Positions 8,975-12,000 of a stretch of DNA of 64,000 nucleotides are shown one piece after another. The notes below the pieces were generated by a model. The model searched no databases and was not told the origin of the DNA. It worked only from the letters and a program-made list of their open reading frames with translations. How positions within the stretch are numbered: position 1 is the first letter of the stretch; every line of letters begins with the position of its first letter. A program made the position numbers and the translations under genes. Location of the stretch: assembly GCA_040954595.2 (NCBI GenBank), contig CM082581.2:4022699-4086698 (forward strand). The letters run 5' to 3'. This DNA is from Balanoglossus misakiensis (Eukaryota; Animalia; Hemichordata).

Positions 8975-9056
8975 GTTTTTCTTGAAGTACTTCTTGAAAT
9001 GTAACCAGAACTGTCTCAAGAATGCTGGAAATCCACGGGATATGCGAAGATTTCAG
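8975..9056 (+). CDS. COE: COE DNA-binding-domain exon, copy A (canonical-like): (R)[27 protein letters not shown]
   Basis: tttacag|G...CAG|gtaaat; 82 nt; near-identical to the corresponding vertebrate EBF segment. Confidence 0.95.
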
Positions 9057-12000
9057 GTAAATTGATAGTTTTTTTCCACCTCGCTGTTTTGCAGGTATTT
9101 CTTGAAGTCCTTCATGAAATGTAACCAGAACTGTCTCAGGAATGCAGGCAACCCCAAGGACATGCGAAGATTCCAGGTAACATTGAATCAAAGCAAGACA
9201 ATTTCGTTCTTATTTTTCACGTATTATTTCACCTGTTTTCCCCACGTTTCCCAGAGAAACACAGAAGTAAGTTGTTTTCCACTAAATGTAGATTAAACGG
9301 TTAAGACTGTTCTTTTTGTTTGTTTATAATTCATTAAAAAAACATATTCCAGAATTTTGAAAACAAATCTTGAATTATAGCTAAATTTCACCAGTTTTAA
9401 CACATTTGGTGACCTCACTGAAAACGACACCGTCATCTTGTTTTCCACGCTCTATTAGACATTTAGTTTTATTTTGCCCTTTTTGTGTTAAATTTATTCT
9501 AAAATCTCCTCTAAATCCTTCCCCTTCTAAATCGCCGTCCTTCTGCGAAAAAAAAATCACAAAGGAAAGTCAGAGGAACTGAATAAAAATATGTATCTGA
9601 GGATGTGTGTGGGTTTGATAGGCAATACATGAAACATGTATACATGGTGTATCCAGTAGTGTCATGGGAGCACTCAGACTTCGCCGTCAGCAATGGAAAG
9701 ATCCTACATGCATGATATTTGGCTGCAAAAAATCACATGCCCGGAAGCTGTCCATTGAGACCGGTCCCTATCTATTTACAAGTATCCCGTCAACGTAGCT
9801 ATCAGATGTTTTTGAATTTTAAAGACAGTAAAGTTCTTCAGAGACCACTGTATCTAATTTGAATATGTTGTAAGCTGACCCCCGATGTCAACTCCTGACC
9901 TCTGCTTTTAACCTTCGTATGCTAGCTGACCAAAAACATCAGAATTGATGAAGACAATGCTGTGAGCCAAATGGAGAGAAAAAAAGAAACAACTGAGCTT
10001 TCTACATTTTCTCCACGACTGGGAAAGCAAGATCAAACCTTTGTCAATTCCAAATATAAACATGAACTTCTCTGGATGGCAGCATGTTTTAATTTGAGTT
10101 CATATTTAGTAATTTCTTAATATGAATAAAAATAAAATAAAGCATAATGTTTGCTACTCAAAATTCCTACAAAAATATGCCATATTGTCCACCATCTAAC
10201 ATTATACAGAAAGTTAGAAAATAATTCCAATTATTGATTTTCTTTTTCTTTTTCCATTATTTGCTGTATTTCCACAATATTTTAAGCTTTATATCTAAAT
10301 TTATTGAACTTAAGGCTGTTAATGATTCTTTTAAATTTGTACCTTTTAAGGCAATGTTACACATCAATTGAATCTCAAGGAAACTCAAAGAAATGTTTCA
10401 TTAAACGTATTGAGGTTCCTACTGAATGTTAGCAAATTCTAAAATAAACTCTGACATCTAAACAACTCTGTTTACAAAAGAGTCTGTTGAAAATGAGAAA
10501 AAAGTATCATCCATTACTGAAATAACTTACATCTGAATATTTTGTTTATTTTGTAGGTTGTGATAGCAACGACCCCAAATGTGGATGGCCATGTTCTTGC
10601 AGTGTCAGACAACATGTTTGTTCATAACAACTCAAAACATGGCAGACGGGCAAGACGTTTAGATCCATCAGAAGGAGGTAAGACTGCTAAATTCTCTGAC
10701 ACACATTGAATTGCAGAGAATCACTGGAAATCAAGGGGAAAGTGAAAGTGTTCAGAAAGTTGACACAAAAACTGCAACATTGTTTGCCATGAAAAAAAAA
10801 AGAAATAAAACAACATGAAAACTAACTAAATTGCATCTGATACTGATGCCAGACTTTGTGCTCGTTGTTCAACCTAAATTTAACCATTTTGCTATTAAAG
10901 TTTGGGAAATAGTTTGGGAAAGTGCATTTCAGAGTTCATAGTCTGACAGTATCAGAGTGACAAGTGTAGAGAAAGAGCAAACTGTGCAGCAACAGAAGTC
11001 AGGGTTTTTAAAAGTATGTTCGAATGCCAGATCCACAAATTTCAACAAGAAACAATCGGTTCAAAGCCTAACGCTTTGTATATTATGTACAAAATTTATC
11101 AAGTTATAATTACAGGAGCAAGGTTTCGAGTTTACCCACACAAATACGTGGTGTGTTTTATAGTTAGATAAAATGCATTTTTGTGAAATCACATTTTGAA
11201 GAGAAAAACCAATGGCATTTAAAAACCTGCAGAATCAGTGCTGTTGACAAGATTACAATGTTTTTCGCTGCTAAATATCTGTAAAGTGACTAGAAGGCAA
11301 AAAAGTCTCTCGATCAGGATCTGAAGCAGAGCTTAATGTAGAAGGCATTAATTGTAAGTCAGACAGATTGGGGAAAAGATAAAATGCAAGGAAGCTTGTA
11401 TGTGTAGGAAAGGCTAATAGAGGTGAAAGAGACTTGATCAGATTGTGGTAGTTTATCACGGAGTTAGCTTTGGTTACAGAAATCCTGATAACCCCTAGGT
11501 TGTGATTAGTCCAGTCATCAATGACTCCCATTTACTTCTGTAATTCAACAGAAATGTCGCCAAATCTGATCCGCTCAAATCAACATTTTCTCACTTAATG
11601 TTGTCGGCCAATTTCAATTTAATTTGCTGTATCTGATGAAGGTATATGCTCAACCGCCGCTAAAGTTTACACTGTCAAATGGAAAATGGTCAGGTGATAT
11701 TTTGAATAACCTTTTTGTCGAGATGGAAGCAACCGTAAAAGGGGATCCTGTTTTCATCCCGCAGCCATGATTTTACCGTTGCCTTCTTAAATAATGATAA
11801 CTCGAGGGCTGTCTTCAATTCTAGTATTCAGATCTTGGCGAGCAGCCTTCAAAGTTAAGCCTCTGCTATCCAGTAAACAGTTTGTTGAAGCAAACGTGGC
11901 AATATTTATCACGAATTACCAAATGAATTTCCATTCAAAAAGTAACTATAAATTTTAAATAATAAAAAAAAATCAATTTTTTGACAGACAGTAGTCATTT

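Follow-up and report, generated by a model that had tools for sequence, protein, structure and literature searches.

A tandem exon pair in the COE gene

The window, that is, the whole 64,000-nucleotide stretch of DNA analysed here, contains two homologous exons of 82 nt, exon A (8975..9056) and exon B (9095..9176), which are arranged in tandem on the forward (+) strand with a period of 120 nt. Each has its own splice sites (slashes mark the exon boundaries), namely the acceptor TTACAG/G and the donor CAG/GTAAAT for A, and the acceptor TTGCAG/G and the donor CAG/GTAACA for B, and the two exons are equal in phase as well as in length, each opening on the final base of an Arg codon and ending in phase 0. 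They differ at 12 of the 82 nt, with neither an indel nor a stop; six codons change synonymously and five change the residue (F>Y, Y>S, L>M, K>R and R>K). In EBF numbering, the changes from A to B are F186Y, Y190S, L192M, K200R and R206K. Exon A, the ancestral-like copy of COE exon E7, encodes residues 186-212 with Y190, L192, K200 and R206, and exon B, the variant copy, carries Y186, S190, M192, R200 and K206; the copies do not differ at K193, N197, C198, N204 or R209. The numbering was anchored on H157/C161/C164/C170/G171/N174/P177/N197/C198/R209, with the numbers as given in an EBF3 preprint (10.1101/067454). Our recount agrees throughout with an earlier, sequence-only reading of this DNA, which had given the lengths, period, AG/GTAA sites and numbers of silent and replacement codons, and the anchored numbering puts the K>R and R>K swaps where that reading had put them, at the equivalents of K200 and R206. 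The 40-nt flanks of A and B do not align to each other, and the pair is the sole exonic direct repeat among the eight repeat families of window positions 1-30000.

That the pair belongs to a COE gene is indicated by the exon A peptide, which equals the EBF1 peptide of PDB 3MLN/3LYR/3MLP at 26 of 27 residues, and by the match of the window exons to the COE of Ptychodera flava, which carries PF16422, PF01833 and PF16423. The zinc knuckle H157-C161-C164-C170 is present in the P. flava proteins, and the corresponding exon lies upstream of the window. Because the exon preceding the pair (E6) is also outside the window, the intron before A must exceed 8.9 kb. Downstream, the next acceptor after the pair is that of the common exon E8 (10557..10677, +), which ends the DNA-binding domain. 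The remaining coding exons, for the IPT, HLH and C-terminal domains (13559..26088, +), were located by tblastn with COE proteins, those of P. flava among them; six exons follow E8 up to a stop at 26088, at the approximate positions 13559/13583-13713, 14160-14375, 15866-16064, 17000-17176, 25090-25314 and 25980-26088 (+). Where tblastn aligned them, the window exons are 88-100% identical to P. flava COE, the C-terminal exon showing several genuine differences. A search with the B frame ranked P. flava isoforms first, and the gene, judged by its sequence, is an enteropneust COE close to that of P. flava.

Some minor features of the window may be recorded here. The choice between the acceptors at 13559 and 13583, 24 nt apart, determines whether an 8-residue linker separates the DNA-binding domain from the IPT domain, and P. 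flava isoforms show the linker both present and absent; a similar linker variation, through two donors, is described for EBF (Daburon 2008, PMC2394523). A 38-nt tandem duplication of 87% identity (14041-14116) lies in the intron immediately upstream of the exon at 14160. A long (GAT)n microsatellite at about 39700-39950 gives rise to a spurious poly-Asp frame, and a CACAA-type satellite occupies 1231-1363.

Maintenance and probable use of both copies in acorn worms

The same arrangement is present in a second organism, in which A, spacer and B lie on one 1.7-kb DNA contig, 96% identical to the window, at a depth of 40-83; the contig was seen in three runs of one study with the same letters and is counted as one observation. 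It aligns to 8930-9184, that is, to 45 nt of the intron upstream of A (8930..8974, +, with a loose end before 8930), A, the spacer, B and 8 nt beyond, with 11 differences in 255 nt, and it is unlike the window beyond both ends (30 and 36 nt of flank compared). At 93% identity, no sequence of these runs fell on 9215-10760, an absence to which no weight is given. The presence of A, spacer and B in the DNA of another organism excludes an artefact of one assembly. Eight of the 11 differences are listed, two in A, three in B and three in the spacer, and all five listed exonic changes (three of three in B) are silent, the three unplaced differences possibly being exonic. Under neutrality, the chance of five silent changes is about 1.5e-4 and that of three in B about 0.005. 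Between A and B, dN/dS is approximately 0.12 (pN 0.082, pS 0.46; 81 nt). These values fit purifying selection on B, and both copies appear to be constrained across species, the comparison outside Ptychoderidae consisting of Saccoglossus for A and Glandiceps for B. Nucleotide conservation in the second organism also reaches the spacer and the upstream intron.

The A and B peptides of P. flava are identical to those of the window, and among the 15 RefSeq isoforms listed for this species, with three further cluster members outside the count, 10 contain the A peptide, five the B peptide and none both. Three pairs of these isoforms differ solely at the five sites. Each copy thus occurs on its own in P. 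flava protein models (10 A, 5 B), which are predicted models and not spliced reads; RefSeq predicted isoforms are built from transcript alignments. In Glandiceps talaboti (Spengelidae), the single listed model (P0011) is B-type at 186, 192, 200 and 206 and has N at 190, and B may be the main or only form in that species. Residue 190 of B, which is S in Ptychodera and N in Glandiceps, looks relaxed rather than selected. Both Saccoglossus proteins examined (Harrimaniidae) are A-type with L at 190; one of them, NP_001158446.1, is the sole non-predicted hemichordate record among those examined. A search for B-type transcript fragments among proteins shorter than 327 aa gave five matches, none of them B-type. 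The alternative use of the duplicated exons proposed by the sequence-only reading is therefore borne out at the level of predicted models, in P. flava and through the B-type model of Glandiceps, and the use of each copy is so far a statement about gene models.

Because the P. flava and Glandiceps models are predictions rather than junction reads, it could be argued that annotation pipelines have worked into them a copy B that is in truth silent, decaying or an artefact of assembly or haplotype. This explanation is very improbable, since the same A-spacer-B arrangement stands on one contig of another organism, the B peptide is unchanged in P. flava although the C-terminal exon differs at several residues, B is nearly identical in Glandiceps, and the listed changes in B are all silent. 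The same observations uphold the earlier proposals that the duplication is old and maintained and that B is neither an assembly artefact nor a decaying copy.

The silent differences between A and B are confined to codons 17-26, with six in the last 11 codons and none in the first 16 (Fisher p 0.0016, for a split chosen post hoc), and the B of the second organism departs from that of the window at codons 9-10, where the B of the window equals A. This clustering could reflect gene conversion or splicing constraint; if so, dS understates the age of the duplication.

The spacer and the proposed basis of exclusion

The GT-AG spacer between the exons (9057..9094, +) is 38 nt long and contains two in-frame stops, TGA TAG, at 9063-9068, a feature absent from the sequence-only reading. 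Its sole YTNAY motif places an A at 9065, which is intron base 9 and lies 30 nt before the acceptor of B; this A is the predicted branch point of exon B, YTNAY being a loose motif. With the letters of the second organism, both stops (which then read TGA TAA) and TTGAT are still present.

In the sequence, all three alternative products reach stops, and double inclusion and double skipping are unproductive. Joining A to B shifts the frame and produces a stop ten codons into B, skipping both copies shifts the frame and produces a stop in the third codon position of E8, and retention of the spacer keeps the frame (202 is 3n+1, like 82) but leads translation into TGA TAG. In addition, the distance from the donor of A to the branch point of B is below the steric limit of approximately 50 nt (PMC7969005; PMC5740500), because any branch point inside the 38-nt spacer is closer than this, although such thresholds come from mammals and C. 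elegans, not hemichordates. C. elegans introns of less than 40 nt are reported not to be excised (PMC4165533), and decay of unproductive products is reported for 14 of 19 non-3n exon clusters of that species (PMC4165533).

As a model, the spacer is likely to be too short for splicing, and the predicted branch point of B would sit within the footprint of the donor of A, so that the donor of A and the acceptor of B would compete. Nonsense-mediated decay, which we infer from the C. elegans data, would remove the two-copy, no-copy and spacer-retaining products. Each mRNA would then take A or B, so that the gene would make two versions of its DNA-binding domain, distinguished by five residues, and the choice of copy would probably depend on tissue or stage. 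Exclusion is likely to be built into the anatomy, through the short spacer and the stops in every other product. RNA folding of 8925-9190 predicted no unusual structure (z -0.70), and docker-selector pairing within this region is therefore unsupported.

Both parts of the arrangement have precedents. Steric exclusion with a donor-to-branch-point distance below approximately 50 nt operates in OGDH 4a/4b (PMC7969005), as it would in the COE pair; introns shorter than 40 nt, like the COE spacer, separate the exons of C. elegans egl-15, let-2 and bet-2 (PMC4165533); and 57 of 629 human clusters are reported to have the steric arrangement (PMC5740500). In the COE pair, a short spacer, a non-3n length and in-frame spacer stops occur together, whereas in C. 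elegans all five clusters with short introns are 3n in length.

We are confident, though short of certain, that A and B are a conserved pair of mutually exclusive exons in acorn-worm COE, whose effect on the protein would more probably be a tuning of affinity or packing than a new recognition sequence. The anatomy, the frame logic and the conservation that enter into this reading are observed directly, and copy use is taken from the gene models; the steric block, decay, regulation and biochemical effect are its proposed steps.

Copy B in the protein and in other animals

According to a review of the EBF1:DNA structure, most of the specificity comes from a central module; the GH loop inserts into the minor groove beyond the motif and contributes to affinity, not to sequence recognition (PMC4312928). 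N197 contacts DNA and is positioned by R209 (10.1101/067454), and both residues are unaltered in B. Neither K200R nor R206K alters the charge of the minor-groove GH loop, and residues 186, 190 and 192 precede the loop. Y186, M192 and K206 are the sole forms in Nematostella, and Y186 and M192 are the sole forms in annelids and flatworms, which suggests that exon B likely encodes a working domain and not a dead one. R200 is found in 0/180 non-hemichordate proteins and in 0/120 metagenome loci (K in all; the scan pattern allowed AGR and CGR, not CGY, at this position), yet it is kept in two acorn-worm families. A domain model of the B form matches EBF1 entries (Foldseek, E ~1e-24), but its pLDDT is below 50 at model residues 104-161; because confidence is low across the exon (below 50 over most of it in the domain-only AlphaFold model, and 26.5 for the full B isoform), we draw no structural inference for the five sites.

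Because the GH loop sets affinity and K200R and R206K keep the charge, we lean slightly towards a tuning by B of domain packing, affinity or residence time over a change of the motif. The earlier proposal that A and B differ in site preference is not upheld, given the affinity role of the loop (PMC4312928), the identity of K193, N197, C198, N204 and R209 in the two copies and the occurrence of Y186, M192 and K206 as sole forms elsewhere. It is nevertheless conceivable, if unlikely, that B of a mutually exclusive pair alters preference for the flanks or half-site spacing of a TCCCNNGGGA-type COE site (the motif as supplied by the sequence-only reading), in the manner of FOXP1-ES. In favour of this, R200 occurs solely in acorn-worm B, where two families retain it; the loop meets DNA next to the motif (PMC4312928), so that flank preference could shift; and FOXP1 exon 18b provides a precedent (PMC11701043). 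FOXP1/FOXP1-ES exons 18/18b are likewise swapped inside the DNA-binding domain of a transcription factor (PMC11701043), but for FOXP1-ES a motif change and a cell-type switch have been demonstrated, whereas the COE pair shows conservative changes in a module described as setting affinity.

Only a little less doubtful is the view that the two exclusive forms are near-equivalent proteins, serving dosage control via splice-coupled decay or being redundant exons constrained by splicing signals. Three of the five B residues are sole forms elsewhere, nucleotide conservation includes the spacer and the upstream intron, and COE factors have been described as dosage-sensitive, but the four B-specific residues common to Ptychodera and Glandiceps go beyond what redundancy would need. 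Since both forms have the same HLH, A/B heterodimers may plausibly form. The natural variants R200, K206 and non-F 190 adjoin residues mutated in EBF3 syndrome and offer a probe of the role of the GH loop.

Few domains in animals are as strongly conserved as the DNA-binding domain of COE, and invertebrates have one COE gene. With a maintained either-or exon in this domain, lineages with a single gene would have a means of producing two COE activities. Among metagenome contigs, a scan of approximately half of the collection covered 120 animal COE loci with 96 distinct exon sequences, and none showed a second exon copy; the sequence on each side of the exon reached at least 130 nt in 118 loci and at least 500 nt in 61. 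The exon has one form in the listed echinoderm proteins (14 of the 22 contain it), in the listed cyclostome proteins (24 of 24) and in the listed vertebrate proteins. In amphioxus, 12 of the 19 listed Branchiostoma proteins (P0026, P0028, P0138-P0154) read FFLKAFLK and seven FFLKFFMK; both forms (A190/L192 and F190/M192) occur in B. floridae, in B. belcheri and in B. lanceolatum, and the B. floridae isoforms X1 and X2 are distinguished by residues 190 and 192 alone. Two forms among the isoforms of one locus imply, from the proteins alone, a duplicated exon there too, and this swap is an addition to the sequence-only reading. Acorn worms and amphioxus are alike in an L192/M192 split between the forms and an altered residue 190. 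F190 is otherwise found in 161/161 exon-containing proteins (mostly vertebrate isoforms, not independent; 10 further proteins lack the exon) and in 116/120 metagenome loci, and residue 192 of these loci is M in 71, L in 47 and V in two.

A single origin of the acorn-worm and amphioxus pairs is possible, with the odds somewhat against it. Very old mutually exclusive exons exist in chordates, as exemplified by Fgfr IIIb/IIIc of amphioxus and vertebrates (PMC5703972), but the COE pair, unlike these, appears in acorn worms and amphioxus and was not seen in the vertebrate and echinoderm proteins listed. A single origin would need at least two losses, L and M at 192 also vary among single-copy animals, and the amphioxus G-alpha genes offer a precedent in which separate lineages duplicated the same exon independently (PMC5896119). 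More tentatively still, the single COE gene of the deuterostome ancestor may already have had a switch with L192 and M192 copies, and the two isoforms would act as distinct terminal-selector variants in different types of neuron or muscle. The M copy would have been lost in echinoderms and in the tunicate-vertebrate line, acorn worms and amphioxus would have kept the switch, vertebrates would have diversified by whole-gene copies instead, and the otherwise fixed F190 would have been freed only where two copies exist. The two pairs provide a test case for whether mutually exclusive exons at the base of deuterostomes arose once or repeatedly, and their significance would be greater if both were one ancient switch with distinct activities.

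Within the same gene family, the vertebrate COE/EBF H2d exon is also a tandem duplication of an asymmetric exon, for which mandatory alternative splicing is modelled as the first stage (Daburon 2008, PMC2394523). H2d lies in the HLH and both copies became included, whereas A and B lie in the DNA-binding domain and are likely still used one or the other. According to that paper, COE modular structure has undergone no other major fixed change than the vertebrate H2 duplication, and the word 'mutually' is absent from its main text (PMC2394523). No description of a COE DNA-binding-domain exon pair was found in the open-access full-text literature, judged by title and abstract, and term look-up found no mention of it in PMC3117877, 10.1101/454926 or PMC5740500. 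At this level, the earlier statement that no described mutually exclusive exons were known in this part of COE still stands, and the exon pair is real, conserved, implicit in RefSeq isoforms and apparently undescribed.

Viral contigs contained no match to the exon. One GTDB contig titled Metamycoplasmataceae MAG (L121) carries a single M192 copy, an animal COE exon with splice sites, which is likely to be host contamination. Three of the metagenome loci (L025, L037 and L028) have divergent single-copy COE exons, in which the loop is followed by one inserted residue or is itself changed at several positions.
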